NCBI GenBank assembly: GCA_018698675.1
Contig: JABIPA010000063.1
Coordinates: 20,851 to 84,850, forward strand
Origin: a bacterium
GTDB lineage: Bacteria > Margulisbacteria > Marinamargulisbacteria > JABIPA01
Direction of reading: 5' to 3'
Length of the DNA: 64,000 nt
Below, piece after piece: positions 1,895 through 23,973 of this stretch; positions within the stretch are counted from its first letter, which is position 1; each line of letters begins with the position of its first letter. The notes under the pieces were generated by a model. That model was not told the DNA's origin, ran no database searches, and saw only the letters and a program-made list of their open reading frames with translations. Made by a program: the position numbers and the translations under genes.

Positions 1895-1929
1895 CCCGAT
1901 TGAACCTGACTATAATAATAGACCTATTT

Positions 1930-2006
1930 GGTGGACGTAGCTCAGTTGGTAGAGCCCCGGATTGTGATTCCGGTGGTCGTGGGTTCAAGCCCCATCGTTC
2001 ACCCCA
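1930..2006 (+). tRNA. tRNA-His (anticodon GTG) with genome-encoded G-1 and CCA
   Basis: The cloverleaf can be folded by hand. Acceptor stem GTGGACG/CGTTCAC, D arm GCTC/GAGC, anticodon stem CCGGA/TCCGG with loop TTGTGAT, and T arm GTGGG-TTCAAGC-CCCAT. The extra 5' G faces C73, followed by CCA. This is diagnostic for tRNA-His. Confidence 0.95.
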
Positions 2007-2018
2007 TTTATATACCTT

Positions 2019-7540: not shown

Positions 7541-7770
7541 TATTTTTAGTGTTTTTTGTACAACTATTTTATGGTCATCCTCTGAAATAGTTCATGATTT
7601 AAACATAATCATCTTTTTTCATTCACGGTTTAATCTCCTAAAAAAAAGGGAATTCCACAAAAGGTGATTACCAACAACTGACAAAAAAAGTATAGAAAGC
7701 TAAAATGAAATTAATTCACAATAGTTCCTTAATACTGACATACAATTAAAACCAAAGAGGATACATCCAG

Positions 7771-10700
7771 ATGCCAGAAAAAACTGTTAAAGATTCTATT
7801 CAACTCATTCACAAAACATTCACTGATTTGTTAAATGATAAGTCAGAGACCGAGAAGTCCCATTCCATAATAGTTAGTTCATTAATTAAACCAAGCCAAA
7901 CAAAATATTATATCTTCGAATTAAAACCAAAAATTATACGACTCATCCAAAAAGACAATAAAGGTTTAAAGAGAGAATGGGAGTACGCGTTTAATTCCAC
8001 AGGAGATATTTTTCTAAATAATGTTAAAGTTTCCACTGAATTAAGCAATGAGTTTTCCGAGTTATTAGCCGACGTTTCTTTAGATATTAATAAAAATAAA
8101 GTTGAGGTTTTTAAGGCCGAATCCGTAAATTCAATTCCAAAAAATAGCACGGGCGTTATTTCTGCATTGTCTGGAAGAAGCGACAAATTCCTTCATATCA
8201 AACAGCTGTCAAAAGAAGAACTCAAGCAAATTTCTGGTGGAGTTGGCGGAATTGCTCCGGTTGGTTTAGGTGTTAGTCCTTCGTTAAGTCCATCTATGCC
8301 CGTCGCAAGGTCTACCCGAGCAGCATCCATGGATACAATGAGTATTCTGGAGCAAGTAATGGCAGACCTAGAACCTGATGCCCGACTCATTCCTACAACG
8401 AACGTCGAATTTTTGCCAGTTCTTTCTAGAAATATAGAAACATTAGTCAATTTTTTCAGACATACTCCAGATACACTTAGAGCCGATCATGATAATTGGA
8501 GCAGAGATATTCAGGTAGCAGCTGTTCCCCCAAGTCCAGCCCCAGAGGTCGCCGGTGGAATAGTCACTGGAGATGAAGAAGTTGGTTCAGACTTACCTCA
8601 TTTGGCTAGCACGACCGGGTTTAAGGAGTTAATCAGAAATTATCAGAAACAAAAGACAGACTTAAAAGCGATATTAGATGAAGCAACAAGTGGTGATGTG
8701 CATAGAGATGCAGGTGCTTTACAAGATAGGTTTGAGTCTGGCTTAAAAAAGCTAATTGATGCCGCTGAAACGATTCAGATAAAAATTGACATGTGGGTCG
8801 ATTTAAAAGGATTAGATAAAACGGATAGAAATTTTGAAAAGCTCAGAAATTTACAGTCTCATTTATCGTCAGATCTAAAACGATTATCCGTCGAATCGAA
8901 GAAATTAAGAAATGTCGTAACTGTTGAAAACCAAGTTATTTATGAACGGTTAGAAGACTTATCATTAATATCGGCGTCTAAGGTTACAAACTTTAATGAA
9001 GCCGTAGGAGCAGAAAGAGACGTTGTAGCGACTCCAGATGAACCTGTCACGGCAGATGCTCTTCCCAAGCCAAAACATGTTTTCGAAATGGAAGACACAT
9101 CTCGTCTTGAAACAGAGTTAAATCGATTTTTAGCAGGTGGAGTAGGCGCAAGAGAAACGCATGAGTTTAACCTTAGCAGTGCGGAATATAATCAAACGGA
9201 CGGGACGTTAACCGTCACATTCAATTCCGTGGGAGGTGATGCCCGACATAAGATTTTAGTCTTACCATTTAAAGCTATGAATCATTTTGAGTCTTTGGAA
9301 GAAGCTGAGTCTATTCTAAAAAAAGGGTCACTTGGCCCAAGTACCGAAGCTAGCGCATCTTTAGGATCTAATCGATTATTTTCTAAACTTATGTCTCAAG
9401 CGAAAGAAGAAATTGAGGCATTTCCTAGTTTTCGACACATGTCATCCGCAAAAAAGAAGCAATTATTATTGGGTAACTTTAATCGAAAATATAACACCTT
9501 GATAAAGTCCTTGAAGCCAATTGTTACCGAACAAATAAATAAAGAAGCCGGAGTAAAAGAAACACACGATTATGAAGTGATGGCAGCTGGAGGAAGAAAA
9601 GTAAATGTCGTAAGCCATAGTGGCGTAATGATTGGCTTTACTGTTAAACCTACTAGAAGACGGATGTTTTCAGGAGAGGACCTTTTAAAAAATCACACAT
9701 TTAGTCCAAGCAAAAGAGAAGATGGAACGTATCACATAACGGCTAAAAATGACGATTTATTAATTAAAGGCTTGAGATCTGACGGTAAAAAATCGATTCG
9801 AAAATTACAGGAACCAAGTCATATAGCTATTGATAACAAAAAAATGACGAGTTCTATGGTTCTTCGAACAGTCACCGAGATAAAAGATACAATTCCAAAA
9901 GAAATGTTCGACGAATGTCTTCCAAAAGAAACATCCATTTATAGCAAATTCAAAAACAAATTTTTTAAAAAAGCGACGCGTCATGCCGACTTCTATCCAA
10001 CAAAAACATGGACGAATATGATGAAAGACGACTTGAATCCAATGTCTCCAGCAAATAAGGGAATTGGAGGAAAAGTATTGTGGGGACTAAAGGCAGTCGC
10101 TTTTCCAATTACAATGATTGTAAATGGTATTGCCACTGGGATGGTTCATTCAAAACGAAACTGGTTTGGAATACGATCAACGACGAAAAAATTCAAGGAA
10201 AATTACAATACCATTTATACCCAATTAAAAGGTGAGGCGAATCGAAAGATGCCAGTTACTGTTGGAGAACGTGTTCGAGCGACTGCTCAAACAACGCACT
10301 CGACGGTTAGAACAATGGTTTTTTCCATCAAAGAAAGCTATTTCACGAGTATCAAGACAAAGTATAAGCGTGAACTTGAACGATTCGATAGTTCAGTTCA
10401 AGGTGCTGCCAATACATTGGGCATCGACCTTCCCGATACAGGGGATGATATAAGAGATCTTGAGGCCTTATTAGCGAAGAAGGATTATGCGAATTCTAAA
10501 GAAATGTATGACTCGATTAATACAAAACTATTAAAATCTCTCAAAAAACGAGAGGAAAAGTTAGGAGAGGTTATTCGACGTATGCAGAGTGAATTGCTTC
10601 CGATGGCGCAACGATTTGATAAAGATGCGTTTAAGGAAACCCTACAAGGAGCACGGCAATCGGTAAACGCGTTGACCCAACTTTATCTAACGTCTGCAAA

Positions 10701-13700
10701 TCAAGTTCAGTCAATTAAATCTGAGCTTATTAAGGGAACCGTAGATTTATTGAAAACGGATTTATTTGTTAAAAATTTAGATCTTAGTGGAGATATTGAT
10801 GACGATGTTTTGAACGCGAATTTACAGATTTTATTCCAAAAATTATCAGACTACGAGTCTACAAAAAGCGACTCTTCCGATATCGATCAAAAAGAGAAAT
10901 TGAAACAAATTTTAGATTATTTCAACACATCGGTTAAAGATAAATTAGAGGAACATGAATCGGAATTTGTGGAGCCATTTAAGCTAACATTAGCTGATAT
11001 TATGGAAACCTATCGAAGTGATAGAGAAGCCTTATCTGTAGAAACTGCGAATCCGTATCAACACATTCAAGAAAATGTTTTGTTTCAATTATCGCTATTA
11101 GATCAATATGAGTCGTTTACAGAAGGAATGACGGAACTTCCAAATTTAGTGATGAGAGAATTTGGTGCAATAGGAATGACTCCGCTACAAGTGCCTATTG
11201 ATCCAGATGAAATTAATCGGCGAATGGTCAATATTGGGAAGCAAATGTTTATATTGGCAAACGAGCCAATTTTAGACTCAGATAAATTTAGACAATTGGT
11301 TGCTCAGTTACGAGACCTTCAGGTCTTTATTCAAGTAAAGCTATTGGAAGTAGATAATTTAAAATTAGGGTCATCTGCTCAACGAGCGACGTTCGAAAGA
11401 ATTCGTCCAGAAATAGAACGATTAATGACGGACAATCAGACCAAGATAAAAGAGATGTTAAGCAAGTTTATGCTACTTCCAAAAATGATAGGGTCTGATA
11501 TTGACTTAGATGGCATCGATTCATTAGTAAGGCAAATCCAAGATTCGAGTTTTCATTTAGGAACAATGGAAGTGGGGGCTGAACATGGAGTGGATGACGG
11601 TATTCCTAGTCCTGTAGGCGATATTGTAGCAACACGTCCATCGGAAGGGCCTATTCGTGCGCCAAGTTTAGAAACAACGACAGCAGCAATATTAAGAGAA
11701 GATAGGCAGTTCTTTGGAGCTGTAAAAGACATGCAGTCTATGCTTGAAGAGGCAATGAAAACGACTGGATCAAAGACAAGAAAAAAATCACTGTCTAAAC
11801 TGTCTACTGCCTTTAGAATTGCCTTACTTTCTCAACGAAAAGATAAATTAGATGATTTTATGGCAATGTTGGCGAAAGAAGATTTAAAAACACATCATGG
11901 AGCGCTTAAACGGATGGATGGATTTTTGGAAAAAGCAACGCTGTTTAGCGCTCAATTTGTCGATAAATTTGGAACCGTGAAGTCAGAAAACTTACTAAAA
12001 ATCGAAAAACAATTAGCCGAGATGGGCTTAGAAAATTTCGAAGTCTATGACTACTTTTACAGTTCAATAAGTGGAACGATAGAAGTTGCAATCAATTCAT
12101 GGTCAACAGGATTTTTTGGGTCTAAAAAAGAGCCTCGTGTTTACAAACTAAAAATTCCTACACCAGCAATGGTGGAAGCTGGTGTTACGGAGTCAAATTT
12201 CGTACGACACATTGGTGCGTCGAAAAACGAAAAGTCAGCCATTAAAAAATTGGTTAAAGGGACGGGGTTATTAAATCCGTCTGTTTTTTCTAGGGGCTAT
12301 GAAGACTTAAAAACGTTTATTTCTGGAAGTGAGAAGACAAAAGTTGCATTGACGCTCAAAACAGAAGAAGAAATTGATGCGGAAAATGAAACAGCTTTAG
12401 CAAGAGGCGTGTCGTTAAGAGCAGATGCCTTGGTGGATGGCGAAAGGGACGATGAAAGTATTTCGTTGATTGGAGATATTTCCTTCGAAGATTTTATACG
12501 TGATATCCATCAATTTACGTTTTCAAATGCAATTGCTTGCGCGGAATTATTTAATAGTCCTCATCCGTTACCCGATGTTTTAACAGTATTCGATATGCCA
12601 TTTGAAGGGACATCTCTCGATGATTTTCCAAAGATTGTTGAAGATGGCGGTCAGAAATTTGAAATTACGGCAAACCAAGTGAATGATCAGGCGCCTATTC
12701 AGTTGGTTTTGAAAAAATTGGATAAATCGAATGGTGATACCGTTTTAGCAGAACAAAAAATCACATGTTATACAAAAGATACCGATGTATCTGATTTAGA
12801 AGATCACGTTGCAGAACAATTTATAAATATGATGACGAGCCGTAGTTACGAGTCTAATTTGAGCGCATCGTTTCATGGATATCTAGACACAAAAATTGCT
12901 TCAGATCATATAAAAAATGTTTTAGAAGAAGAATTGGTCGGAGGTGAATCTACGATTACTCTTACTCCATTTGAGCGAAAAGTCGCGAAAAAAATTAGAG
13001 AAATGCCAGAATTATTGAACAAATTAAGGCCTGAAGCGATTCAAAAGAAAGTGTCAGACGAAATAGAAAATTTAGTCGATCTTTTTGATGAGACAAGTAC
13101 AGTCGATCTAAAGTCAGTTTTGGATGGGTGTCCTCCTGAGATGGTTGATGGATTAAATGAGTTGATAGATGAAGATAGCACCACTTCGGTATTTGGCGAG
13201 TTAATAAATAACTCAGTAAATGAATTATCAACGAGTATAGGCATAAGTGAGTCATTCGACGATGCATTTGAACAATTCTCGAAGACAAAAAATCAATTGA
13301 AATTTGTTGCTGAAAAAATGATTCGAGAAAATTTGGGTACCGTTATAGATGATGATCCAGAATTTTTTTCGGAATCTTTAGAAAAAGTGTTGGCAGAAAT
13401 TGAAAATAAATTAAATACAATGTTTATTGGACACATAACAGAAAAGTTACTAAAAAAGGTCCCTGAGCTTGATTGTGATAGGGTTGTGGATCCTGATGCA
13501 TTGGACGTGAAAGTTAAATCACATATCGATTTTTTAAAAGATAGAACGGAGGCTGCTAAAAAGATAAATGCTCAATCCATGAAACTATTAGGGGAAAAAT
13601 CAATAAATGAAGAAGCCTTTAATTTATTTAGTGTACAGCACTTGGCAGAGCGATTAGGTGAAATAGATGGTGCTCATTCGGATATTGTATTAGACGATTT

Positions 13701-15582
13701 TTCTGAGGTAAAAGTAAAAACCTTTAAATTGAGTAGCTTGATACATCAGCGGGTACTCCAGGTTGCATCTGGCTTAGAAATGGCACTTTTTTCTGCTGTC
13801 AGAGGTGGTCGTGTTACGGTGGATTCTCGAATACCAATGAGTAGAATTTTAACGAATAAAATTTTACATGAGGAAACGTCTATTGATAAATTTAAAGAAA
13901 AGCTGGCGTCTCTAAAATCAAGCAAACCTTATTTGAGTGAATTACCTGATTCATATGAATTACTAGGAATGGCTTATTCAGATATTGATGAAGAATCGTT
14001 CGTCACGGATATTAGAATACTAACTGATTCTGGCGAAGAAAAATTAATTACTTTTGAACCAACCGAGCCCTATGACAAAAAAGCCTTTCGAACGTTAACA
14101 AAAATCCTCGCAAAAAAAGAAAAAAAGAAACCGTCCGTAATAGCATACGAGAAAAAATACCTAAAGCCGTCTATTGTCGAAAAATATCTACATATGGAGC
14201 CAGGCAGTTTACGAGGTCAAAAGATTGAACTTAAAGGTCCATCTTTTAGCAGGTCATATTATGGTTCGACGCAAATTGCTGGTATATCAATTCAGATTGA
14301 AGGAATGAGCAGTCCATCTATGATTGATTTTGACTCGTTATCAGAAGAAGATGTTTCTCTTAAAACTAATTTTGTTGATTTGTGGACAGCAGGAAAAAAA
14401 GCGATTGTTGAGGAAATTAAGGGCTTAAGTCAATGTAATATGAGAGACGATCTGTTTGGAGCAGATCCTGTTTCACAAGAAATTAAAGAGAGTTATTTAA
14501 CGATACATAATCGACGATTAAACTACGATATTGAACAAGCGTTAGACGGTATCTTTTCGGGAAAATTACAACAATCTATAGATGCCGTGAACAGAGGCCT
14601 TGAACATGATGTCCATGTATCTAGGACCGCTCCATCTCACGTTGTTGAAGTGGCCCAATCAGACAGAGACCGTTTAGATGAACTTGTTGAGCAAAAAACG
14701 AGAGAGTTTGAACTGTCTTATGAAAGAAATATTCAAGCATTTAAACGAGAAACAGATGCTAGAGCGCAGAAAATTTTGAACGAAATAACAGGCTATTCTG
14801 ATATAAAAATTGATCACGTCGTTTTAGATGAATCAGGACGAATTACAGATATATTAATAAGAAAACGAGATAGAGACGATGTAGAATCGTTTAGAAATAT
14901 AAACAGATTAAAGAGGTCTTTAAAACATACGTCTTTTAAAAATGATTTTCCTGGCTTTTTAGATGAAGTAAACCGACAGGTGAGTGAACAGTTTACGGCA
15001 TCAATAGCAACGTTTAGGAAAGAAGAATCTCTACAGGTTCAGGTGGCGCAGGTGTGTTCGGGCGTTAATTCATTAATTGCAAATTTGTCGCCGGACAAAT
15101 TTGATGTTTTCAATATGAAACCGGCAGTAAATGGATTGCCAACTGATTCTGAAAAACAAGCCGTTTTTGATAAATTAGAAGAATTTAAAGAAACCGTTTT
15201 TAGTCCAATTAACGAAATGTTAAGTCATTTACCGGGTGGATTAGAAGGTTCTATTCCGAAGGAGGATGTTGAATTCTTTTTTACGCATTTGGAATCAGGA
15301 AGCGCTTACGATGTTAAAAAATCTATCGAAAAAATGCCTATCGCGGTGCAGGTAATATTTAAACGATTAGCAGGGTTAAGGACTATGATTGGTGATAAAT
15401 TGAATCATTTGGAATCGGCATATGATTTAGATTATGAAGACATGCCAGATGGCACTGAATTTGAAGCAAGTAACTTTTTGTCAGGATTTGCAGCGAATGA
15501 AGGACCTGATTCTAAAAAAGATTCGATAATTTTAAAGTTTTTGTCTAAAAAATATGGGTCTTATTTTAATAGTAAGACTTAG
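7771..15582 (+). CDS. giant hypothetical protein, paralogue A (2603 aa), no recognisable domains
   Basis: Uninterrupted 7.8-kb ORF with an AAGAGGA SD 9 nt upstream of the ATG. Collinear with 15697-23680 along its whole length. Hydrophilic N-terminus with no signal peptide, and one conserved hydrophobic segment around aa 764-795. Confidence 0.88.
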   Translation: MPEKTVKDSIQLIHKTFTDLLNDKSETEKSHSIIVSSLIKPSQTKYYIFELKPKIIRLIQKDNKGLKREWEYAFNSTGDIFLNNVKVSTELSNEFSELLADVSLDINKNKVEVFKAESVNSIPKNSTGVISALSGRSDKFLHIKQLSKEELKQISGGVGGIAPVGLGVSPSLSPSMPVARSTRAASMDTMSILEQVMADLEPDARLIPTTNVEFLPVLSRNIETLVNFFRHTPDTLRADHDNWSRDIQVAAVPPSPAPEVAGGIVTGDEEVGSDLPHLASTTGFKELIRNYQKQKTDLKAILDEATSGDVHRDAGALQDRFESGLKKLIDAAETIQIKIDMWVDLKGLDKTDRNFEKLRNLQSHLSSDLKRLSVESKKLRNVVTVENQVIYERLEDLSLISASKVTNFNEAVGAERDVVATPDEPVTADALPKPKHVFEMEDTSRLETELNRFLAGGVGARETHEFNLSSAEYNQTDGTLTVTFNSVGGDARHKILVLPFKAMNHFESLEEAESILKKGSLGPSTEASASLGSNRLFSKLMSQAKEEIEAFPSFRHMSSAKKKQLLLGNFNRKYNTLIKSLKPIVTEQINKEAGVKETHDYEVMAAGGRKVNVVSHSGVMIGFTVKPTRRRMFSGEDLLKNHTFSPSKREDGTYHITAKNDDLLIKGLRSDGKKSIRKLQEPSHIAIDNKKMTSSMVLRTVTEIKDTIPKEMFDECLPKETSIYSKFKNKFFKKATRHADFYPTKTWTNMMKDDLNPMSPANKGIGGKVLWGLKAVAFPITMIVNGIATGMVHSKRNWFGIRSTTKKFKENYNTIYTQLKGEANRKMPVTVGERVRATAQTTHSTVRTMVFSIKESYFTSIKTKYKRELERFDSSVQGAANTLGIDLPDTGDDIRDLEALLAKKDYANSKEMYDSINTKLLKSLKKREEKLGEVIRRMQSELLPMAQRFDKDAFKETLQGARQSVNALTQLYLTSANQVQSIKSELIKGTVDLLKTDLFVKNLDLSGDIDDDVLNANLQILFQKLSDYESTKSDSSDIDQKEKLKQILDYFNTSVKDKLEEHESEFVEPFKLTLADIMETYRSDREALSVETANPYQHIQENVLFQLSLLDQYESFTEGMTELPNLVMREFGAIGMTPLQVPIDPDEINRRMVNIGKQMFILANEPILDSDKFRQLVAQLRDLQVFIQVKLLEVDNLKLGSSAQRATFERIRPEIERLMTDNQTKIKEMLSKFMLLPKMIGSDIDLDGIDSLVRQIQDSSFHLGTMEVGAEHGVDDGIPSPVGDIVATRPSEGPIRAPSLETTTAAILREDRQFFGAVKDMQSMLEEAMKTTGSKTRKKSLSKLSTAFRIALLSQRKDKLDDFMAMLAKEDLKTHHGALKRMDGFLEKATLFSAQFVDKFGTVKSENLLKIEKQLAEMGLENFEVYDYFYSSISGTIEVAINSWSTGFFGSKKEPRVYKLKIPTPAMVEAGVTESNFVRHIGASKNEKSAIKKLVKGTGLLNPSVFSRGYEDLKTFISGSEKTKVALTLKTEEEIDAENETALARGVSLRADALVDGERDDESISLIGDISFEDFIRDIHQFTFSNAIACAELFNSPHPLPDVLTVFDMPFEGTSLDDFPKIVEDGGQKFEITANQVNDQAPIQLVLKKLDKSNGDTVLAEQKITCYTKDTDVSDLEDHVAEQFINMMTSRSYESNLSASFHGYLDTKIASDHIKNVLEEELVGGESTITLTPFERKVAKKIREMPELLNKLRPEAIQKKVSDEIENLVDLFDETSTVDLKSVLDGCPPEMVDGLNELIDEDSTTSVFGELINNSVNELSTSIGISESFDDAFEQFSKTKNQLKFVAEKMIRENLGTVIDDDPEFFSESLEKVLAEIENKLNTMFIGHITEKLLKKVPELDCDRVVDPDALDVKVKSHIDFLKDRTEAAKKINAQSMKLLGEKSINEEAFNLFSVQHLAERLGEIDGAHSDIVLDDFSEVKVKTFKLSSLIHQRVLQVASGLEMALFSAVRGGRVTVDSRIPMSRILTNKILHEETSIDKFKEKLASLKSSKPYLSELPDSYELLGMAYSDIDEESFVTDIRILTDSGEEKLITFEPTEPYDKKAFRTLTKILAKKEKKKPSVIAYEKKYLKPSIVEKYLHMEPGSLRGQKIELKGPSFSRSYYGSTQIAGISIQIEGMSSPSMIDFDSLSEEDVSLKTNFVDLWTAGKKAIVEEIKGLSQCNMRDDLFGADPVSQEIKESYLTIHNRRLNYDIEQALDGIFSGKLQQSIDAVNRGLEHDVHVSRTAPSHVVEVAQSDRDRLDELVEQKTREFELSYERNIQAFKRETDARAQKILNEITGYSDIKIDHVVLDESGRITDILIRKRDRDDVESFRNINRLKRSLKHTSFKNDFPGFLDEVNRQVSEQFTASIATFRKEESLQVQVAQVCSGVNSLIANLSPDKFDVFNMKPAVNGLPTDSEKQAVFDKLEEFKETVFSPINEMLSHLPGGLEGSIPKEDVEFFFTHLESGSAYDVKKSIEKMPIAVQVIFKRLAGLRTMIGDKLNHLESAYDLDYEDMPDGTEFEASNFLSGFAANEGPDSKKDSIILKFLSKKYGSYFNSKT

Positions 15583-15696
15583 TACTAACTTATTTCTTAT
15601 CCAATAAGTTAAGAACCCTGAATTTTTGGGTATATAAATAGAAGACCACTATGATTATGTAGTTAGGTTAATGATTTAATACGTAGGAATGATTTT

Positions 15697-16185
15697 ATGG
15701 GGAAGGTAGATATTAAGCAGCTGATACTAGAGTTGCGAAAGAATTTTTCGGCAATAATTGAGTCTGATGATGATTCAGTTATTATTACCTCACTTCGTCA
15801 AAAAGATCAGCCATCCTATTATATTTTTGAACTTCAACCTAAACCTCTTTTAATTCGGTTAATGGAAAAAAAAATAGATATTTCAAAGAATGAATGGACG
15901 TATTCGTTTGGGGACAAAACCGATGTTTTCTTAAACGGACAAAAATGTTCGAATGCAATGTTCAAGGTTTTTACAGAGAGGATCAAAAAGGTGGCTTCGG
16001 ATATTTCAAAAGAATCGGTGGAAGTTTTTACTGCTAAAAAAGAGAAAAAAGAAAAGGTTTCGGACAATCCAAGAATGTTTTCTTCCACGTTTAATCAAAA
16101 TTATTCTAATGGGAAAAAAAGAGATTTTTCTAAAATTAAACAATTAACAGGAGAAGAAATGAAAAGTAAGGTGAGAAGTGTCTAA
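15697..16185 (+). CDS. hypothetical protein homologous to the N-terminal ~160 aa of paralogue A (detached N-domain of paralogue B)
   Basis: Aligns to residues 1 to ~200 of the 7771 protein (YYIFELQPK vs YYIFELKPK, NEWTYSF vs REWEYAF, SVEVFTAKK vs KVEVFKAES, IKQLTGEEMK vs IKQLSKEELK). Its stop overlaps the GTG start of the next ORF. Confidence 0.75.
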   Translation: MGKVDIKQLILELRKNFSAIIESDDDSVIITSLRQKDQPSYYIFELQPKPLLIRLMEKKIDISKNEWTYSFGDKTDVFLNGQKCSNAMFKVFTERIKKVASDISKESVEVFTAKKEKKEKVSDNPRMFSSTFNQNYSNGKKRDFSKIKQLTGEEMKSKVRSV

Positions 16186-19100
16186 TTCAGGTGGAATAGG
16201 TATAAGGCAATCCGTTACTCCTGGTAAACTTTCGGGTTCTTCCAAGTCAGCACCTGCGGGGAAGGTGTCTAATGGTGATGGGGACGTAGCTACCCAACTT
16301 GCTAAAGACTTAGATGGGTTAAAAATTTCAACTCCAGCTAACAGAGACTTTTTACCTGGATTGGAAAAAAACTTACAGGGATTGGTTGAATTTTTTGATC
16401 AAATTCCAGAAATGCTTAATGTTGATGTTCCAAGTTGGGAAGAGCCTCCAAGCATAAACATTACTCAGAAAAATTGCTCACCTGATGTTGTCGTTGTTTC
16501 TCCTAATCCTAAAGCAACAAATTTAAAAGCATCGTTCAAAGAATTACTTACAGATTATAAATCTGTTAAATCTGAGTTAAAAGAAATGCTTCAGGAATTA
16601 AAAAAGGGATCTGCAGATTCTGAAACTATCCAATCCGATTTTGAAGAAAAATTAGGAGAATTATTGGATTATGGAGAAGTAATTCAAGACAAAATAGATG
16701 CATGGCAAGAAAAAAATGAAGGAAAGGAAAAAACTTCCGTATTTAAAAAGATGAATGGGTTACAGGCAGGGCTAGCTTCTGATTTTGCCAGATTATCTAG
16801 GTATTCGAGTAAAATCGGGGATTCCGTTAAAACTAACAAAAGTCCTGTTTATGATAAATTAAAAAACTTTGCTGCCAATACGAGTAGTAAAGCTGCTGCT
16901 ACAAATAACGTTGTCTTAGCTCAGCCTAATGTAAATTCTTTACCAAACGATGTTCCAAAAGAGTCAGTTCTACCAGAAGCAAAAGATATTTTTAAGGTTC
17001 CTTATAAAGAAGAATTTGAAACTCAAATGAGTTATTTATTTGCAGACACTGCGGGTTCAAGAGAAACGAAAGAAATGCAAATAGACGGTTTGGAATATAA
17101 TAAAACGGATAACTCAGTTTGTATTCATATGGATTCAGTAGACGGGCTTAGAAGCAAGTCCGTTGAATTGCCGTTTGCAGATGGATACGAATTTAAGTCT
17201 ATGGAAGACGCTGAAAATATAATAGCGAAAGGTAGTTTAGATAGAGGAAAGAGTCCAAAAGAATTGTTGGGGTCGAAACGTTTATTTAATAAATTAAAAA
17301 ATCAAGCGAGTGCAGAGTTAGAAAAAATGCCAGGGTTTAAAAAAATGGATCCAGACTTAAAAAAGAGCCTTTTAACTCGAAAGTTTAATGAGAAATATCA
17401 AGCCTTAGTTAAGAATTTGAAACCGACTATTGTAGACCAACTAGAGCAAATTGATAAAACTGGAGAGGTAAACTTTGAACCAGTTGATAAGAATTTCAAG
17501 ATGACCTCAACGAAAGTTAAGACATCGTGGCTATCTTCGGGTCTTACTATTATTGCCGTCGGATCTGGTAAAAGCGGGATAAAGTTTAAAGTTACAACAA
17601 CTAAAAGAAAAGAATTTTCGTATAAGGATACGATAAAACAAAGAAGTTTTACCGCTGATAATCCTGTTTCAAAGGCCGATGATCCAACATCTGGAAGTAT
17701 GTCAGTTGTTGCAAAAGGAGGAAAACTTTTCTTTAAAGGAAAAGCAGGAGGTAAAGATAGGATAAAAGCCTTAATAGGATCAGATACAATAAACGTGACA
17801 TCAAAAAAAACAAAAAAGCAATTAAGTACGGTAACCGAGATAAAGTCGACGATTCCTAAAAAAATGTTTGAAAAGTGTTTGCCTCAACCCAAGTCAATGT
17901 TTTCTATAGCAACCCGTGTAGAAAATAAAGTTTTTAAAAAAGCGGAGAAATCTGTTGGTTTGACGAGGCCTAGTACGTTTGGGAACTTAATTAAAGAAGA
18001 TCTTTGGCCAACTTCTACTCAAAATAAAAGTATTCTTGGGAAATTAGGCGTAGTCGTTAAATTATTACCTAATCTTGCTTATACATTGCCTATAGGTCTT
18101 ATCGTGAATGCCGTTATAATGACTTCTGCTCATTCGAAAGGTGATTCTTTAAAACTTCAATCGACCATGAAATCGTTTAAAGGAAACTACGAGACCCTTA
18201 CAAAAAATCTGTTAGGAGAAGTAAGCAGAGGAACAAATACAAGAATAATGGAGATGCCAAAAGCTGTTGCTCAATCAACCACATCGGTAGGGAAAACGGT
18301 CAAATTTGCGATGGGGTCAGCATTTAAAAATATGATGAAAGATAAATTTAAAGAGCAAATGGAGCTTTTTGATAAGTCAATTCAAGAAACAACGAATGTA
18401 CTTGGAGTAGCAATTCCAGATAGTAAAGCAGAAATAGAAGAAATGGAAAGATTAATAGATAGTGGCGATTTTAAAAGTGCTGAAGATGTGTTCAAACTTA
18501 TCGATCAGAAACTTACATCTTCAATGAACAAACGAACCAAGGCCTTAGGATCCTTAATCGACCAGATGCAGGAAAAATTACTCCCTGCCGCTAAAGATGC
18601 CAGTAAATTAAAAAGTACATTGATCAATGCAAGAGCAACCGTAAATGAATTGACAGGACTGTATTTAAAATCCGCAAATTCGGTTCAATCAATTCGATCT
18701 GATTTGATTACGGGTACGGTAGAAATATTGAAAAATGACGATGCAATGTCGAAGTTAGGAAGTAAGGGAGCTGAAGGAAAGGTGAAGTCAAAAGTTAGCT
18801 CCTTTATGAAAAAAATGGAAGACTATGAGTCAAGGAAATCAGGAATGGATCCCGCGGAAAAGAAAGATGTTTTGAATTCTATAGTTTCAGAGTTTAAAGA
18901 TATAGAAGCTATTAGCGAAAATGGCGATAATTTTATGGATAAGAAAGAATTAGAAATAATTATGAATTCTTTGGAAGGCGTTATGAAACCTTTAGAAAGC
19001 ATAATGAAAACGTATCAATCTGATATCGAAGTATTTTCCAAAGAAGCGCCAAACCCATATCAAGGAATGGAAAGTAATATTGATTTTCAAATTTCTTTAC

Positions 19101-22100
19101 TAGAAGATGTAGACGCCTTTAAAGCAGAAATGAACGATTTACCAAATATGGTTGCAAGAGAGTTTAAAGGCAGTCCTCATAGTATTCCTCTCGACATGAA
19201 TGAAATAAATCAAAAAATGGTAAGCGTTCAAAAAGAAATGTTTGAGTTCTTAAACAAACCTGACAGTAAGGATGATAAGGCGGGGTTTGATAAAATTTTG
19301 ACAAAATTGAGAAATTTGGAGACGTTGACCCAAACAAAAACCTTGCAAGTGGATAGCTTGACATTAAATACAAAAGAGAAAAACGAAATTTTAACTAAGA
19401 TTAAACCAGAAATACGACGGCTTTTAAAAAATAATCAAGAAAATATTCAAGACATAATTGTTAAATTTATGAGTATGGATGTAGCCACCGTTTTAGACGC
19501 AAAAGGGGATGGGATTAATGCTATTGCAAGTGAAACACATGGATTAGCCGTAAAATCGGAAAGCTTAGGTGATTTTGGTTTACATGACGACATGACGACA
19601 ACCATGTTAAAAGGAGATATGTCGTTTGGAGCAACAGTCAGCGATATGTCCAATTCTTTAAGAGATGCAGCCGCTAAAACAAATTCGAGTTCAAGAAAAA
19701 AAGCGTTACAAACACTATCCAAATCCTTCGAAATTGCGATTCTTTCTCAACGAGAGGACAAACTACAAGATTTTATGAGTTTAATAGACTCTGAGATGTC
19801 AAAGACCAATAGTGGTGCTTTAAAAACAATGGAATTTTTTAAAGATAATGCAGGTTTGTTTAGGATGCAGTTTCTTGAAAAATTTGGGGAAGAAAAAGCA
19901 AATACGTTAAAGTCCGTTGAAAAGAGTCTTTCTGACATGGGTTTAAGAAATTTTGAAGTTTATGATTGTTTCGAAAACAAGACCACCGGTGCTATTGAGG
20001 TATCGATAAATACGTGGGAAAAAGGAACGCCTGAATCTAAAAGACAGCCGAGAATTTTGAAATTAAAACTTCCTCGAGTTGATGATAGCTTAAAATTTTC
20101 GAAGGAATCTTTTTTAGTAGGAAATGAGGACAAAAAAGCGAGTTCTAAATCAGAAACGAGGGGTACGTTCGCAAAAGATGAGTTTTATGGAAAAGTAGGA
20201 GTATCATCTGAAGATGAAAAAGCCTTGAGGTTTTTGTTGAAAGATAGGTCTAAAAAAGCAACTAACACTAAAGATATTTTAAATAAGAGTACCTACGCAG
20301 AGTTTTTTAACGACCTTAGCTCCATGCTTAATTCGAACGAAGATCCGACCGTCGATTTGGATGCGCCAAAACTTACTGTTGAAGAATTGGAATCTAGAAA
20401 TGAACAAATAGGTAGTGATAAAAAATTGAAAATGGAAGGTCTTTCAGCAACAGCATCCATGTCTGATTATTCGGGCGAAAGTTCTGAGTTCGGGGATGAT
20501 ATATCTGATCGAGGTTCCATAAATTCTGCGGGAGGCCTTTCAGTTCCTGACGATGAATTAGCCTCCGTTAGTTCGGAAGATTCGATGATATCTCAAATGC
20601 AGGCTGCCGCTGAAGCTAGCAATAAATTTTCTCTTGATACTCCGGAAACGGTTGCTCAATTATTTCAAACTGACAAACCATTACCAAAACATATCGCCTT
20701 GTTCGGTTTTCCGGAGGGTGGATTAAAATTGGGGGACCATCCGAAAGTAATAGACGGTGGAGACTTCACTGTCGAAATCGAAATGACTCAATCAAATGAG
20801 TCAGATCCAATTCAGTTAGTCTATAAAAAAACAGATAAAAAAACAGGTGTGTTACAAGAACAAGAACTAACCATTTACAACAAAGAAACAGCCGTCGATT
20901 CCATAAATGAAGATGTTGCCTCCCAATATGTCGATTTGGCAATAAGTAGAGACTATTCAGTAAATTTTGGAAGTGGAGGAGAAGGGTTTTATATTTCAGG
21001 GGGCGCGGCTAGAGCGATCAATGTCTCTATAGTTAGTGGCTTAAATAATCCAGATGTTTTTCCCGAGGGATATGATACGAGTTTGTCGGAATTTGAGTTT
21101 CAAGTAAAACAAAAAATACTTGAAACTCCAAGCCTGTTAGAAAAGATAACTCCTGGAGCTGCGCGTGAGAAAATAATAGATACATTAACGGATCGATTCG
21201 ACAATTTAGATCTATCTGAATTTCTAGAAAATTCAAATAGATTAATTGGTTCCGATGGAATGTCTTCTGGTGCAGATGGAATAAACGCCTCTTTTGATGC
21301 GTTCGAAACGTTAAGTACTGAATTCGAAGAAACTCTGGTTCAATCTCTAAAAGAAACCATCGGCACGGCAATCCAAGGAAATGAAACTCTTTTCGATGAT
21401 GAACTAGGTGAAAAAATGGATGAACTCAAGGTAACAATGAGAAAAAAGTTTTTAAGTTCGTTAGGGGCGGTTCATTTAGCTACTTTTCCATCGGTAGGCA
21501 CAAGTTTTGTTGAGAACGGGTCAACAATGGACAATAAAATGAAGGCTTTTTCAAAGGCATTGACTAGTTTTCACGCCGCTTCAAACGCATTGGAACAAAA
21601 ATCGATAGAATTATCGGGCGCCGGTTTATTTAACGAACAGACCCTTTTTAAAACTAGTTTAGCCGATAATATTGGTGAAATGTATGAATCTGAAGGGACT
21701 TCTTCAACAATAAGATCTGCTAATGGCGAAAATATAGAAAATTCATCATTTACATTATCGGGACTAGTTGCTCAAAAAACATTAGAGTTTTCGTCCAATT
21801 TTAGCCAAGATGTTTTTGGCGTATCAAACGAGCATGGTGAATACCCAACAGTTGGATTGAATCAAGACTTGGATTTTAAAATGGCGCAGACCTCCCGGGT
21901 ATTGAATACAAGTTCAAATATGGATAAATTGTCCGAAAAATTAACGAAGATGAAAAATTCCAAACCTCAAAAAGAGTATTTAAAAAATTTACCGGATAAT
22001 TTTAGCATCATAAGTATCCGAAATGACAGTATTGAAACTCCTGATAAAAGTGGAAAAATGGTGAGTAATTCTTACGTAGGAGGCATTCTTGTTTCAACTC

Positions 22101-23680
22101 CAGAAGGAAAGGAGATCTTAATAGAAATTGAGCCTGATGAAAATTTTGATGAGAATGTTTTAAAAGATTTAACAGGAATTTTGGAGAAAACAGAACGAAA
22201 ACCAACTGTTAAGAAATTTGAAGACAATTTTTTGAATAACGTAAATCTAGCATTAGTGTTAAACGAAGACCCAGATAGTTTTGGAATGCGAAACGCAAAA
22301 ATAACCATTCCAATTATGGATTCCGATGACAATATACAAGGCATATCGATAGAAATTGAACCAACAAAAGAACAGAAGAAAAGGGGAATGAAACCTACTG
22401 TAAAAGAAATAAAATTCAGCAGCATTCCATCAAGTATTAGAGAACAATTTAGTACAGAATTAACCAGTATGTGGAGCGGATGCATAAATGAAGAAAAAAA
22501 TAAGATAGTTGATTCGGTAGTCAGTCAATTAAATACGCGATCTGAATGTTTTGGATCCGATGCTGCAGGGCAACAAGCGAAAGGGATTTTTAATGATGCC
22601 TTACGTCAAAAAGTTTCTAGAGAAGTGGGTTATTCTATGGAGGCAGTCCAAAATCCTCAAGGTGGCCAATTGGAGAGTTTAATTGTCAGAGTTAATGAAG
22701 GGGTTCGTCACAATAGTATTGCTAAAAACACGAACACAGATAATTTGTTTCATACCGCTGCTGAGAGCAAAGAACGCGTATCTAAAACCTGCAATGAATC
22801 TTTAGCTCCACTTAAACAGAAATATGAAAATAAAGTAACCGAATTTAGGAAAACGGTACCCAAATTTGTTCAAGATAAAATGAAAGATTTAATAGGAGCT
22901 GATGTAAAGGTAGATTCTGTAAGGTTTGATTCAAACGGAAACGTCACTGATATTATGATCGTCAAAAAAAATAGTAAGGATGGGATAGATAGAGTTGTTT
23001 CGTTTAGAGATATAGGACGTGTTAAAAAGGGAGTGAAAGATAGCGCTTCGTTGAATGGAAGTTTCGACAAATTGTTAGACTCTATTAATAAAGGCGTTCA
23101 ATCTAGACAAGAAACAGCTACTAATGAAGAGCTATCAAACCTTGCTCTGGCGAAAGATAATGCGGAAGCTGCAATATTTACAACCCAGACTATAGCCGAG
23201 TTCAACGATGAATCGTTTAGCCTGTTTAAAATGAGACCCACGATCCCATCTGCCCCAACAAAATCTGAACTTGCCGAATTGAGATCTGGAATCGATGACT
23301 TTTCAGAATCTGTATTGACGCCCTTGAACGAAGCCTTAAGTGGATTAAAAGATGGTTTAGAAGGAGCAATTCCTCCTGAAAATAGAAATGAACTTTTTGC
23401 TTCACTAGAAAAGGGGAACTCTATGGAGATTAGAAGAGCTATAAATAAGCTACCTCCTGAACTTAAGATACTATTTAAGAGATTGGCGGGAGCTGTTCAT
23501 ATGATAAAAGAAAAAACAGACGCTCTATCAGAAGCCTATGGAATGTCTACAAATAACTTTGAAGATGGATTACAACTAGATGATGATTTCGTTACTAATT
23601 TTGTAGCTACTAACGGTGATGCAACGATCCTACTAGATTTAGCGAAGCATTATGGTACCGTTTTTAACAATAAAGACTAA
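16178..23680 (+). CDS. giant hypothetical protein, paralogue B body (2500 aa)
   Basis: 7.5-kb ORF starting at GTG 16178, preceded by an AAGGTGA SD-like sequence. An in-frame TGA at 16172-16174 fixes the upstream limit. Collinear with paralogue A from SGGVGG/SGGIG to the C-terminal FKRLAG block. Confidence 0.85.
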   Translation: MSNSGGIGIRQSVTPGKLSGSSKSAPAGKVSNGDGDVATQLAKDLDGLKISTPANRDFLPGLEKNLQGLVEFFDQIPEMLNVDVPSWEEPPSINITQKNCSPDVVVVSPNPKATNLKASFKELLTDYKSVKSELKEMLQELKKGSADSETIQSDFEEKLGELLDYGEVIQDKIDAWQEKNEGKEKTSVFKKMNGLQAGLASDFARLSRYSSKIGDSVKTNKSPVYDKLKNFAANTSSKAAATNNVVLAQPNVNSLPNDVPKESVLPEAKDIFKVPYKEEFETQMSYLFADTAGSRETKEMQIDGLEYNKTDNSVCIHMDSVDGLRSKSVELPFADGYEFKSMEDAENIIAKGSLDRGKSPKELLGSKRLFNKLKNQASAELEKMPGFKKMDPDLKKSLLTRKFNEKYQALVKNLKPTIVDQLEQIDKTGEVNFEPVDKNFKMTSTKVKTSWLSSGLTIIAVGSGKSGIKFKVTTTKRKEFSYKDTIKQRSFTADNPVSKADDPTSGSMSVVAKGGKLFFKGKAGGKDRIKALIGSDTINVTSKKTKKQLSTVTEIKSTIPKKMFEKCLPQPKSMFSIATRVENKVFKKAEKSVGLTRPSTFGNLIKEDLWPTSTQNKSILGKLGVVVKLLPNLAYTLPIGLIVNAVIMTSAHSKGDSLKLQSTMKSFKGNYETLTKNLLGEVSRGTNTRIMEMPKAVAQSTTSVGKTVKFAMGSAFKNMMKDKFKEQMELFDKSIQETTNVLGVAIPDSKAEIEEMERLIDSGDFKSAEDVFKLIDQKLTSSMNKRTKALGSLIDQMQEKLLPAAKDASKLKSTLINARATVNELTGLYLKSANSVQSIRSDLITGTVEILKNDDAMSKLGSKGAEGKVKSKVSSFMKKMEDYESRKSGMDPAEKKDVLNSIVSEFKDIEAISENGDNFMDKKELEIIMNSLEGVMKPLESIMKTYQSDIEVFSKEAPNPYQGMESNIDFQISLLEDVDAFKAEMNDLPNMVAREFKGSPHSIPLDMNEINQKMVSVQKEMFEFLNKPDSKDDKAGFDKILTKLRNLETLTQTKTLQVDSLTLNTKEKNEILTKIKPEIRRLLKNNQENIQDIIVKFMSMDVATVLDAKGDGINAIASETHGLAVKSESLGDFGLHDDMTTTMLKGDMSFGATVSDMSNSLRDAAAKTNSSSRKKALQTLSKSFEIAILSQREDKLQDFMSLIDSEMSKTNSGALKTMEFFKDNAGLFRMQFLEKFGEEKANTLKSVEKSLSDMGLRNFEVYDCFENKTTGAIEVSINTWEKGTPESKRQPRILKLKLPRVDDSLKFSKESFLVGNEDKKASSKSETRGTFAKDEFYGKVGVSSEDEKALRFLLKDRSKKATNTKDILNKSTYAEFFNDLSSMLNSNEDPTVDLDAPKLTVEELESRNEQIGSDKKLKMEGLSATASMSDYSGESSEFGDDISDRGSINSAGGLSVPDDELASVSSEDSMISQMQAAAEASNKFSLDTPETVAQLFQTDKPLPKHIALFGFPEGGLKLGDHPKVIDGGDFTVEIEMTQSNESDPIQLVYKKTDKKTGVLQEQELTIYNKETAVDSINEDVASQYVDLAISRDYSVNFGSGGEGFYISGGAARAINVSIVSGLNNPDVFPEGYDTSLSEFEFQVKQKILETPSLLEKITPGAAREKIIDTLTDRFDNLDLSEFLENSNRLIGSDGMSSGADGINASFDAFETLSTEFEETLVQSLKETIGTAIQGNETLFDDELGEKMDELKVTMRKKFLSSLGAVHLATFPSVGTSFVENGSTMDNKMKAFSKALTSFHAASNALEQKSIELSGAGLFNEQTLFKTSLADNIGEMYESEGTSSTIRSANGENIENSSFTLSGLVAQKTLEFSSNFSQDVFGVSNEHGEYPTVGLNQDLDFKMAQTSRVLNTSSNMDKLSEKLTKMKNSKPQKEYLKNLPDNFSIISIRNDSIETPDKSGKMVSNSYVGGILVSTPEGKEILIEIEPDENFDENVLKDLTGILEKTERKPTVKKFEDNFLNNVNLALVLNEDPDSFGMRNAKITIPIMDSDDNIQGISIEIEPTKEQKKRGMKPTVKEIKFSSIPSSIREQFSTELTSMWSGCINEEKNKIVDSVVSQLNTRSECFGSDAAGQQAKGIFNDALRQKVSREVGYSMEAVQNPQGGQLESLIVRVNEGVRHNSIAKNTNTDNLFHTAAESKERVSKTCNESLAPLKQKYENKVTEFRKTVPKFVQDKMKDLIGADVKVDSVRFDSNGNVTDIMIVKKNSKDGIDRVVSFRDIGRVKKGVKDSASLNGSFDKLLDSINKGVQSRQETATNEELSNLALAKDNAEAAIFTTQTIAEFNDESFSLFKMRPTIPSAPTKSELAELRSGIDDFSESVLTPLNEALSGLKDGLEGAIPPENRNELFASLEKGNSMEIRRAINKLPPELKILFKRLAGAVHMIKEKTDALSEAYGMSTNNFEDGLQLDDDFVTNFVATNGDATILLDLAKHYGTVFNNKD

Positions 23681-23697: not shown

Positions 23698-23973
23698 CTA
23701 ATGAAATAATTTAATTTTAATAGAGTCTTCAGTCATCTCAACTGTTTTTTGAAAGAAATTAGGGTCAAAGAAAACAATTGGAGATTCATCTTTAATTTCT
23801 AATTTGTAAGAACCGATGACAGGCTTTTCAACAGATAAAATCACTAAATTTTCCTTTGTCGATCCACCTTGAGTATCTAAGTTTAATCCAAATGAATCAG
23901 ATAAATTAAGTATTTCTTCTGGGCTTAACAGCTTGTGAGTATCTTTCATTTTGTTTTCTTTTTTGTCTTTCAT
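23698..23973 (-). CDS. small acidic hypothetical protein (91 aa)
   Basis: Strong AAGGGGGA SD about 7 nt upstream of the ATG. Convergent with paralogue B, 17 nt from its stop. No motif recognised. Confidence 0.55.
   Translation of the reverse strand: MKDKKENKMKDTHKLLSPEEILNLSDSFGLNLDTQGGSTKENLVILSVEKPVIGSYKLEIKDESPIVFFDPNFFQKTVEMTEDSIKIKLFH

Follow-up and report, generated by a model that had tools for sequence, protein, structure and literature searches.

Two adjacent genes, here called A and B, span about one quarter of the 64-kb window (the whole stretch of DNA that was analysed). What could a pair of giant proteins do in which the original prediction recognised neither a signal nor a domain, and why is only one of the two encoded as a single chain? 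The host is a bacterium of a poorly sampled lineage from oxygen-depleted marine water; the part of its genome seen here encodes ordinary biosynthetic pathways and does not resemble that of an obligate symbiont. DapA and transketolase reach no more than 53% identity to any sequence outside the metagenome-assembled genome SI072_bin15, and a T9SS-type C-terminal domain on the window's S8 peptidase hints at an affiliation with the FCB group.

An ancient pair of giant paralogues

The genes and their expression signals, by window coordinates, are:

7678..7706, + strand: sigma-70-like promoter candidate CTGACA-17-TAAAAT, upstream of A (consensus scan, 10/12 matches)
7754..7773, + strand: SD-like AAAGAGGA and ATG start of A, read from the sequence
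7771..15582, + strand: gene A (ORF), putative pro-protein of 2603 aa consisting of N-domain, GG leader and giant cargo
15583..15696, + strand: A-B spacer, 114 nt, with TAGGAA preceding the B1 ATG
15697..16185, + strand: B1, stand-alone N-domain with a degenerate leader (..KQLTGEEMKSKVRSV*), 162 aa, pI 9.5
16178..23680, + strand: B2, cargo-only paralogue, 2500 aa, GTG start, beginning MSNSGGIGI..

The lengths, coordinates and 114-nt spacing of the two same-strand frames are as originally described, and the end-to-end collinearity of their products, first noted by eye, is borne out by alignment. A and B2 share 31% identity over 2612 BLASTP columns (1086 bits, E = 0), with B2 aligning to A residues 165-2603 at 31% identity, and the N-terminus of A matches the 162-aa B1 at 41% identity (E 3e-22, BLASTP); the global MAFFT alignment is collinear throughout, with 34% identity over aligned columns, and all seven peptide blocks that had been quoted are present at collinear positions. 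The duplication is old, as had been proposed: no DNA tract shared by A and B exceeds 73% identity, on which ground recent gene conversion was also rejected, and A-type and B-type N-domains are already separate in relatives. The C-terminal ends are conserved across A, B and another family member, P0006. Horizontal acquisition was rejected, since A and B do not differ from the host genes in GC or GC3. A and B are anciently duplicated genes for giant proteins with a predicted mature size of ~2450 aa. The spacer contains no terminator-like hairpin, and the two genes are probably co-transcribed; the promoter candidate is weak evidence, given that sigma-70-like consensus matches are as frequent in shuffled sequence as here. 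No small same-strand gene follows downstream.

Gene A is under purifying selection. Compared with its orthologue in the metagenome-assembled genome SI072_bin15 (65% amino acid identity), it shows dN 0.237, dS 1.08 and omega 0.22, and the orthologous frame is open over 1426 codons. Evolution is nevertheless fast, at ~10 times the rate of transketolase in the same pair of genomes (dN 0.024). Selection had been claimed for both copies; this holds directly for A, and for B2 we infer it from the 2500-codon frame, still open long after the split, and from the existence of a 2480-aa counterpart in another organism.

A double-glycine motif behind a novel domain

The claim that these proteins lack any recognisable signal or domain holds for Sec signals, the N-termini of A and B being hydrophilic, but not for the beginning of A, where a novel conserved domain is followed by a double-glycine leader motif:

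7771..8124, + strand: N-domain, A residues 1-118, predicted as helix, five beta-strands, long helix, strand (AF2 pLDDT ~70)
8125..8196, + strand: predicted disordered linker, A residues 119-142 (AF2 pLDDT <50; poorly conserved in the N-domain alignment)
8197..8241, + strand: double-glycine leader motif IKQLSKEELKQISGG, A residues 143-157, predicted cleavage after G157
8242..8298, + strand: Gly/Pro/Ser-rich predicted mature N-terminus VGGIAPVGLGVSPSLSPSM

Homologues of the N-domain were found in P0003, P0007-P0010, P0012 and P0013. PDB and Foldseek searches gave no match beyond the weak ones mentioned below, and the possibility that the domain repeats an internal module was rejected (hhalign probability 0.07). 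The TIGR01847 model (bacteriocin_sig) scores 15.1 bits (E 0.027) on A residues 143-157, just below its cutoff of 15.7, and 17.1 bits, above the cutoff, on the same motif in the A orthologue P0003, through which the A family reaches the leader consensus; B, with RS in place of GG, does not. The leader part of TIGR03949 also matches A, and the P0003 motif is additionally matched by the TIGR03949, NF047798 and TIGR04149 leader models. A helix is predicted by AF2 at A residues 148-155, and the hydrophobic positions -4, -7, -12 and -15 are occupied by I, L, L and I; in PCAT1, leader positions -4, -7 and -12 contact the C39 domain (PMC6959990). The motif is conserved in P0009 (..LSNEELKLIVGG..) and P0013 (..LSEDDLRQIVGG..), which are 25-28% identical to the A N-domain and have C-terminal parts unrelated to A. 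After the GG, an IAPV-type motif can be seen by eye in A, P0003 and P0013; the A peptide beginning at V158, the predicted first residue after GG, is VGGIAPVGLGVSPSLSPSMPVAR. Judged from these profile matches, A residues 143-157 represent a leader motif of the class-II-bacteriocin double-glycine type, which together with the N-domain also stands before unrelated cargo in other uncultured bacteria.

Fission of gene B at the equivalent site

The 162 and 2500 residues of B had been treated as a single frame; they are instead the two products of a fixed gene fission at the site equivalent to the GG of A:

16168..16185, + strand: fission junction, with SD-like AAGGTGA at 16168-16174, B2 GTG at 16178 and B1 TAA stop at 16183-16185

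At the break the frame shifts by +1 and the two ORFs overlap by 8 nt (GTGTCTAA). The exact 162-aa B1 with an overlapping downstream ORF was found on 11 contigs, which come from no fewer than 10 independent assemblies; nine of these contigs were aligned and are 99.96-100% identical to the window. Such recurrence shows that the break does not stem from misassembly. The B1 terminus, '..EEMKSKVRSV*', matches '..EELKQISGGV' of A codon for codon, with GG changed to RS, and, when aligned to A at the DNA level, B lacks 8 nt directly after the GG-equivalent codons. Two other explanations of the junction were rejected: programmed +1 frameshifting at GUC-UAA, because the P-site tRNA cannot re-pair in +1 and B lost the GG motif, and phase variation, because the junction lacks a repeat tract and all assemblies share one fixed break.

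A giant, predicted helical cargo

The following features of the cargo were delineated:

9079..9324, + strand: small alpha/beta domain, A residues 437-518, with a GxRET...EYNxTD...LPF block (AF2 pLDDT 60-78)
10063..10155, + strand: conserved hydrophobic segment, A residues 765-795 (Kyte-Doolittle)
10333..12159, + strand: long-helix core, A residues 855-1243 and 1300-1418, plus a three-strand beta-meander, 1424-1463 (AF2 pLDDT 60-85)
18038..18145, + strand: B2 counterpart of the hydrophobic segment

The AF2 models as a whole are of low to medium confidence (pLDDT 54-56). The long-helix core with its beta-meander is the most conserved part of the family (A and B are 41-53% identical per 100 columns) and aligns with the cargo-only homologue P0004; the small alpha/beta domain is likewise conserved in A, B and P0004, and the two beta-modules show no significant mutual relation. 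The segment at residues 765-795 is the top Kyte-Doolittle window of A (1.61), the homologous place in B reaches 1.77, and P0004 is also hydrophobic there; this may be a membrane-inserting or re-entrant stretch. AF2 confidence is low at this point. A and B2 have pI 5.3-5.5 (B2, 5.3) and contain 0.27-0.28% Cys (B2, 0.28%), compared with 1-2% in housekeeping and 0.03-0.23% in likely secreted proteins of the window. Their K+R content of 13% is like that of this genome's cytoplasmic proteins and unlike that of its other secreted proteins. As modelled, the cargo is thus giant, mostly alpha-helical, acidic and Cys-poor, and the long-helix architecture with one conserved hydrophobic segment suggests a structural or membrane-interacting protein of the envelope or the extracellular space. 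Regular-expression searches found no HExxH and no conserved GxSxG or Walker A, as originally reported, and the absence of the repeats usual in giant proteins was confirmed by the lack of RTX and YD motifs, by a self-BLAST without internal repeats, and by an empty Pfam search.

An orphan family

Among 1.84 billion representative proteins, the A/B family is represented by 13 matches, and judging from these, it is an orphan family that is very rare, occurs in uncultured marine bacteria and has no described protein relatives. No known family surfaced that would undo the claim of novelty: searches of the cargo against Pfam, NCBIfam, PHROGs and PADLOC, profile searches of the PDB, and Foldseek searches of the PDB with both AF2 models produced nothing significant, the best PADLOC defence models reaching E 0.003 or weaker over short stretches (ZorA, Cas2) that we take as chance-level. 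A word-indexed homology search with A returned no matches; because even the window's own proteins were missed, negatives from this search are weak. With the N-domain profile it returned only P0010 and P0012, and with the profile of the C-terminal half only P0006. Pattern scans with A over genome contigs, with P0004, and over viral contigs found none; the metagenome scan found only B itself, and a scan with the A/B/P0006 profile only the contig of the A orthologue. The N-domain alignment is too variable to serve as a scan pattern.

The members differ in how module and cargo are joined. P0004 (2517 aa) is cargo only and starts with MSVPISPVSVGFDPS, which by eye resembles A residues 161-171. P0007 is B1-like (80 bits to B1 versus 45 to A) and precedes a separate 2480-aa ORF, in an organism whose B1-like ORF is only 44% identical to B1. 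P0010 is the N-domain alone, abutting a 702-aa ORF, and P0012 is a stand-alone N-domain without a giant neighbour. The P0009 module heads an in-frame run into a protein of 1849 aa that bears eukaryote-type protein kinase domains; orphan ORFs of 1317 aa and at least 1197 aa come next at that locus. Across the family, interruptions fall between N-module and cargo or shortly after, never deep in the cargo. Of two further contigs, both at 1.9x coverage, possibly chimeric and judged unreliable, L112 may carry a truncated A orthologue and L114, in which the order A to B1 is also present, a B-deleted variant. What survives of the suggestion of an undescribed system is the undescribed family; that it forms a system is unproven, as no partner genes were found and the neighbours are housekeeping genes.

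Possible processing and export, and alternatives

The reading that we favour, tentatively and at somewhat short of an even chance, takes A for a pro-protein whose GG site serves for processing and probably for export, and B for the gene-fission version of the same arrangement. A would be made as an N-domain of ~118 aa, a disordered linker, the 15-residue GG helix and the Gly/Pro/Ser-rich start of the cargo; a C39-type cysteine peptidase would cut after G157, most likely as the peptidase domain of an ABC exporter whose gene lies in another part of the genome, and the cargo would be exported or released in step with removal of the N-module. B would obtain the same two products genetically, the 8-nt deletion past the former GG ending B1 and B2 restarting by translational coupling at the SD-preceded GTG that overlaps the B1 stop. 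The cleavage, the protease and the export in this scheme are all deduced from sequence features.

Several observations sit uneasily with this scheme. Canonical GG leaders are the first 15-30 residues of their precursors; the motif of A lies 142 residues in, after a 118-aa domain and a linker. To our knowledge, nothing approaching the 2446-aa cargo of A is known to pass a PCAT; the PCAT1 cavity fits roughly one 66-residue cargo (PMC6959990). B2, P0004 and the 2480-aa ORF have no fused leader, so that, if the leader is required for export, they would stay inside the cell unless they travel along with A or are served by an N-module in trans. Dedicated PCATs usually adjoin their substrates, and neither a C39 peptidase nor an ABC transporter was found in the 64-kb window or within ~10 kb of seven other family members.

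This absence of transporter and peptidase in eight contexts also speaks for an alternative that we consider possible, if on the unlikely side, namely that A and B are giant cytoplasmic or membrane-associated scaffolds in which the N-domain is a regulatory or adaptor domain, possibly PH-like, acting in cis in A and in trans in B1 plus B2, with the LSxEELxxIxGG helix an uncleaved docking site or hinge unrelated to export. The cytoplasmic-type K+R content, the lack of a Sec signal, T9SS C-terminal domain or RTX signature, the N-domain that can stand alone without a giant nearby (P0012), its weak Foldseek matches that include PH domains, and the combination of fusion and fission between N-domain and cargo, a classic sign of interacting partners, all fit such a scaffold. 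It does not, however, account for a motif that four or five independent GG-leader HMMs recognise, that attains the curated cutoff in an orthologue and that has the exact -4/-7/-12 spacing, nor for the flexible G/P/S stretch that follows it, as a protease site would have; moreover, the decay of GG to RS once the chain of B was broken fits a site that served only for cutting, and the depletion of Cys is like that of secreted proteins.

Unlikely, in our estimate, is that B, after a frameshift, has begun to decay as a pseudogene, with A alone functional and the position of the break coincidental. The break does separate N-module and cargo, two patterns recovered no B orthologue from SI072_bin15, and the junction of B1 codon 55 with B residue ~2488 in L114 could be a large deletion in B, although that contig is the low-coverage, possibly chimeric one. 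Against decay stand 2500 codons open at 36% GC, where the off-frames of an orthologous A (L113) carry 124-173 stops per 4.3 kb; a break so old that GG has since changed to RS; an SD-like sequence and a GTG placed exactly at the restart; and the recurrence of a B1-like ORF with a separate 2480-aa ORF in the organism with the 44%-identical B1. The chance that a break at a random position lands this near the GG site, a few codons away at most, is ~0.2% of gene length.

Slightly less probable again is that the N-domain and GG module form a lineage-specific tag that delivers giant effectors or toxins such as A and B against protist hosts or competitors: the kinase-domain protein behind the P0009 module in another organism, the fast evolution of A and the patchy distribution of an orphan family would fit, but toxin, immunity and secretion-apparatus genes are absent nearby, the C-terminal ends are conserved rather than polymorphic, an omega of 0.22 does not indicate overall positive selection, and the genome, with its normal biosynthetic pathways, is unlike that of an obligate symbiont.

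Comparison with known systems

The pro-protein reading of A finds its closest parallel in the class II bacteriocin and microcin GG precursors (PCAT/AMS, TIGR01847), which share with A a 15-residue amphipathic leader, LSxxELxxIxGG, with hydrophobic -4/-7/-12, followed by cargo, and in which, as with the A module, one leader type precedes unrelated cargo. In contrast to these precursors, the motif of A ends a 157-aa module instead of forming the N-terminus itself, its cargo is ~2450 aa rather than <~100 aa, an adjacent cognate PCAT is absent, and B swaps cleavage for gene fission. NHLP (TIGR03793) and Nif11-like (TIGR03798) RiPP leaders likewise are long or folded N-terminal domains, of ~70-80 aa, that end in GG before diverse cargo; however, TIGR03793, TIGR03798 and PF07862 gave no hit in NCBIfam and Pfam searches at E up to 1, the Nif11-like fold is all-helical whereas the N-domain of A is predicted to be alpha/beta, and the cargo of A is a giant protein, not a peptide, with no modification enzymes nearby. 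Like A, the LapG-released T1SS giant adhesins of the LapA/MpIBP type are giant, acidic and Cys-poor, with a small folded N-module, a linker and a short cleavage motif, but that motif is di-alanine rather than of the GG-leader type, and A lacks RTX nonapeptides (GGxGxD), Ig-like domains and internal repeats (regular expressions, self-BLAST, Pfam) as well as T1SS genes nearby. The C-terminal 120 residues of A and of B showed no T9SS sorting domain (Por_Secre_tail, CHU_C), in a search that did detect one in the window's S8 peptidase. Of the traits of polymorphic toxins (RHS/YD, CdiA, MafB), YD/RHS repeats are absent in Pfam searches, the C-termini are conserved, and no immunity-like gene lies downstream.

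Implications

The established role of GG leaders is to tag peptides and small proteins. A conserved folded domain with a GG leader at its end, ahead of 2,400-residue proteins, would mean either that this route takes far larger cargo than thought or that the motif has a second use, and the natural fission of B, falling where cleavage is predicted, is an uncommon genetic clue to the position of the cut. Being under selection and without a homologue of known function, these genes are a clean target for existing Saanich Inlet transcript and protein data. A broader conjecture, unlikely as it stands, is that the ~118-aa domain, linker and GG helix constitute an unrecognised class of leader that sends diverse proteins of 700-2500 aa, helical giants and kinase-domain giants among them, to C39-type processing and export in a deep uncultured lineage, the module working in cis, where it is cleaved, or in trans, after fission at the cleavage site. 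If this were true, GG-dependent export would extend from peptides to megadalton-scale cargo, and the cargo family would represent a novel type of giant protein in the envelope or the extracellular space.

The split paralogue pair and its host

The locus comprises one giant gene, A, and its paralogue B, which is divided between two genes, B1 and B2 (ORF map):

7771-15582, + strand: A, 2603 aa
114 nt: spacer between A and B1
15697-16185, + strand: B1, 162 aa
16178-23680, + strand: B2, 2500 aa, GTG start

The tandem, collinear arrangement put forward in the original prediction is borne out by this map and by alignment from end to end: A and B2 match over 2612 columns at 31% identity (BLAST, E = 0), B1 matches the N-terminus of A (E 3e-22, 41% identity), and the global alignment is collinear at 34% identity, with the best 100-column blocks at 41-53%. 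Every peptide block quoted in that prediction was located in the pair. No internal repeats were found and no tract of DNA is shared at more than 73% identity, so the duplication is old, as had been proposed, and recent gene conversion is ruled out. The GC and GC3 of the pair are the same as those of adjacent housekeeping genes, the neighbors being RmuC, RNase J, DapA, sigma-70, Pth, IspD, RpoN, TsaD, Tkt, AroB/AroQ, PrsA and PriA; that A and B are an artefact or non-coding sequence is excluded. Divergent from A lies a gene for a 395-aa Ser/Tyr-rich predicted lipoprotein (6117-7304, - strand; signal peptide, lipobox-like SSGC), and convergent with B2 is a 91-aa ORF (23698-23973, - strand), a called gene in the JGI record; neither has a family match.

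The window lies on a contig of 262 kb from JGI sample 3300072015. Closest to the window's transketolase, at 95% identity, is that of the MAG 'bacterium SI072_bin15' (GCA_018699495.1), the other matches found reaching at most 53%, and no relative above 50% identity was found for DapA, so the lineage is poorly sampled. The last 120 aa of a subtilase (Peptidase_S8; 48234-50816, + strand) match FlgD_ig, CHU_C and Por_Secre_tail and are a T9SS-type sorting domain, which hints at a host in the FCB group. Elsewhere in the window, a highly acidic 1481-aa protein (31804-36249, + strand; D+E 17.9%, W 2.1%, Cys 0.07%), which contains CarboxypepD_reg domains and weakly matches bMG3/SdrD_B, is probably secreted or surface-located. 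A 2887-aa ORF (55281-63944, - strand; Cys 0.03%, low K+R) shows no BLAST relationship to A or B; its sole match is a Gp10_C-like domain of phage baseplates at the very C-terminus, with E 8e-6 when the entire protein is searched and 6.7e-7 when only the tail is.

A rare family under constraint

A profile built on residues 1-1200 was run exhaustively with HMMER against 1.84 billion representative proteins and yielded 13 matches in total: the window's own proteins and their fragments; two A-orthologue fragments, P0003 and, from SI072_bin15, P0006; a single full-length homologue, the distant P0004 (2517 aa, 24% identical to A 414-1633); a few small proteins in which nothing but the N-terminal domain is shared; and P0011, a BED-finger repeat protein that is probably spurious. 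The cargo, that is, B2 or the ~2450-aa remainder of A after G157, gave nothing significant against Pfam, NCBIfam, PHROGs, PADLOC or, in profile searches, the PDB, nor did two AF2 models in Foldseek. The cargo family is undescribed, in line with the original prediction, and so is the N-terminal domain.

Selection on A, also part of the original prediction, is supported by the SI072_bin15 orthologue, in which all 1426 codons on its contig are open (65% amino acid identity, dN 0.237, dS 1.08, omega 0.22). For the transketolase of the same genome pair, omega is 0.036 and dN 0.024; A is therefore constrained, yet evolves about 10 times faster than a core enzyme.

Predicted anatomy of the A cargo (AF2 tile of A 414-1613, mean pLDDT 54)
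A 437-518: small alpha/beta domain
A 534-593: helices
A 590-855: low-confidence stretch
A 765-795, with its counterpart in B: only conserved hydrophobic segment, inside the low-confidence stretch
A 855-1243 and 1300-1418: long helices
A 1424-1463: three-strand meander

Both paralogues have a pI of 5.3-5.5; their Cys content (0.27-0.28%) resembles that of the window's probable secreted proteins (1-2% in housekeeping proteins there), and their K+R content (13%) that of cytoplasmic proteins. No Sec signal, T9SS CTD or RTX motif was found in them, in agreement with the earlier reading as to the signal peptide and RTX.

The double-glycine motif and the N-domain

A had been thought to contain no recognisable domains, but this overlooked A 143-157 (IKQLSKEELKQISGG), which corresponds to the 15-residue bacteriocin-type double-glycine (GG) signal TIGR01847 of NCBIfam at 15.1 bits, below the cutoff of 15.7, and is also matched by the leader part of TIGR03949. 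In P0003, the shorter orthologue fragment, the same motif scores 17.1 bits, over the cutoff, and is matched by the leader models NF047798, NF033383 and TIGR04149. Positions -4, -7, -12 and -15 of the A leader are I, L, L and I; in the structure of PCAT1 with its substrate, leader positions -4, -7 and -12 dock on the C39 peptidase domain (PMC6959990).

Ahead of the motif stands a conserved N-domain, modeled by AF2 (pLDDT ~70) as a helix (6-21), five strands (33-82), a helix (89-107) and a strand (112-115), the N-terminal model being otherwise disordered except for helix 148-155, the leader itself. Foldseek returned no significant structural neighbors for this domain, only a few PH domains at poor scores. 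N-domain, linker and motif, jointly the N-module, recur in P0009 (..LSNEELKLIVGG..) and P0013 (..LSEDDLRQIVGG..), at 25-28% identity to the domain of A and followed by unrelated sequence, which indicates that the module is portable and that the motif is its best-conserved part.

Breaks at the module boundary

Relative to B1, B2 is read in the +1 frame, and the two overlap over 8 nt (GTGTCTAA). At least 10 assemblies (ENA, Logan, JGI) contain the exact 162-aa B1 with an overlapping downstream ORF, on 11 contigs in all; the nine contigs that were aligned match the window at 99.96-100% identity, as does contig L027. The frame break is real. In the DNA alignment, the end of B1 (..GAA GAA ATG AAA AGT AAG GTG AGA AGT GTC TAA, ..EEMKSKVRSV*) pairs with ..EELKQISGGV of A, so that GG is replaced by RS; after these codons B has 8 nt fewer than A, shifting the frame, and MSNSGGIGI of B2 pairs with ..APVGLGV. 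AAGGTGA lies 3 nt 5' of the B2 GTG, and similar elements precede A (AAAGAGGA) and B1 (TAGGAA) at a similar distance, making a restart of B2 by translational coupling plausible.

Comparable breaks occur in relatives. P0007, from another organism and clearly B1-like (80 bits to B1, 45 to A), is followed after 189 nt by a separate orphan ORF of 2480 aa. P0010 consists of the N-domain only, and a stop codon is all that lies between it and a 702-aa orphan ORF, which begins at the very next codon; P0009, a 238-aa ORF with N-domain and GG motif on a contig belonging to JGI 3300072015, is followed in frame 22 nt later (stop + 21 nt) by a 1849-aa ORF with a Pkinase domain and then by two more giants. 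At each of the latter two junctions there may be an in-frame stop, read-through or a coupled restart. P0004 has no N-domain and starts with MSVPISPVSVGFDPS, by eye resembling A 161-171 (IAPVGLGVSPS). Every interruption in the family lies where the N-module meets the cargo or a short way beyond, and none deep in the cargo, which argues for selection on the cargo and for a separable N-module.

The order A to B1 is kept in L114, a 651-bp contig of an SI072-like relative (1.9x coverage). Over positions 1-651 it carries the C-terminal end of the A orthologue, the spacer and codons 1-55 of the B1 orthologue joined to B residues ~2488-2547, and is either a ~7-kb deletion variant of B or an assembly chimera. 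Another contig, L112, carries over positions 323-3782 the N-terminal part of the A orthologue (67-69% identity), the match ending abruptly at residue 545, and then a PorP_SprF (T9SS) gene on the opposite strand; at 1.9x coverage it is probably chimeric. In several independent short-read assemblies of the window's population, contigs end at ~15406-15433 and ~17757-17797, where no repeat is present; a possible cause of these shared ends is heterogeneity between strains on either side of the A/B junction.

Possible roles of A and B

The structure-level observation is solid; as to function, we tentatively infer from sequence that A is a pro-protein from which a C39-type peptidase would cut the N-module after G157, probably in a step coupled to export, and that B would be a gene-fission derivative no longer in need of the cut, the genetic break sitting where A would be cleaved. 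Against cleavage and export, neither the window nor the surroundings of seven other family members contain a C39 or ABC gene, the leader sits inside the protein instead of at its N-terminus, every known cargo of a PCAT (C39-peptidase ABC transporter) is far smaller, and B2 and P0004 are leaderless, so that their way out of the cell is unexplained. The chief rival, which we consider somewhat less likely, is that the GG motif serves as a non-cleaved docking site or hinge, A and B being scaffolds in the cytoplasm or associated with a membrane; the N-domain would then work either in cis or in trans. That B is a decaying pseudogene is improbable: 2500 codons are open, GG has decayed, restart signals are present, and a divergent organism shows the pattern again. 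About equally improbable is that A and B are delivered effectors or toxins.

Only the GG-leader motif connects A with known biology. Three features that define the PCAT-substrate family were looked for and not found, namely an N-terminal leader, an adjacent transporter and a small cargo, and A is placed outside that family. It differs in that the motif ends a 157-aa module, the cargo spans ~2450 aa and, in B, the gene is split at the very site, a setting for a GG leader that is unprecedented.
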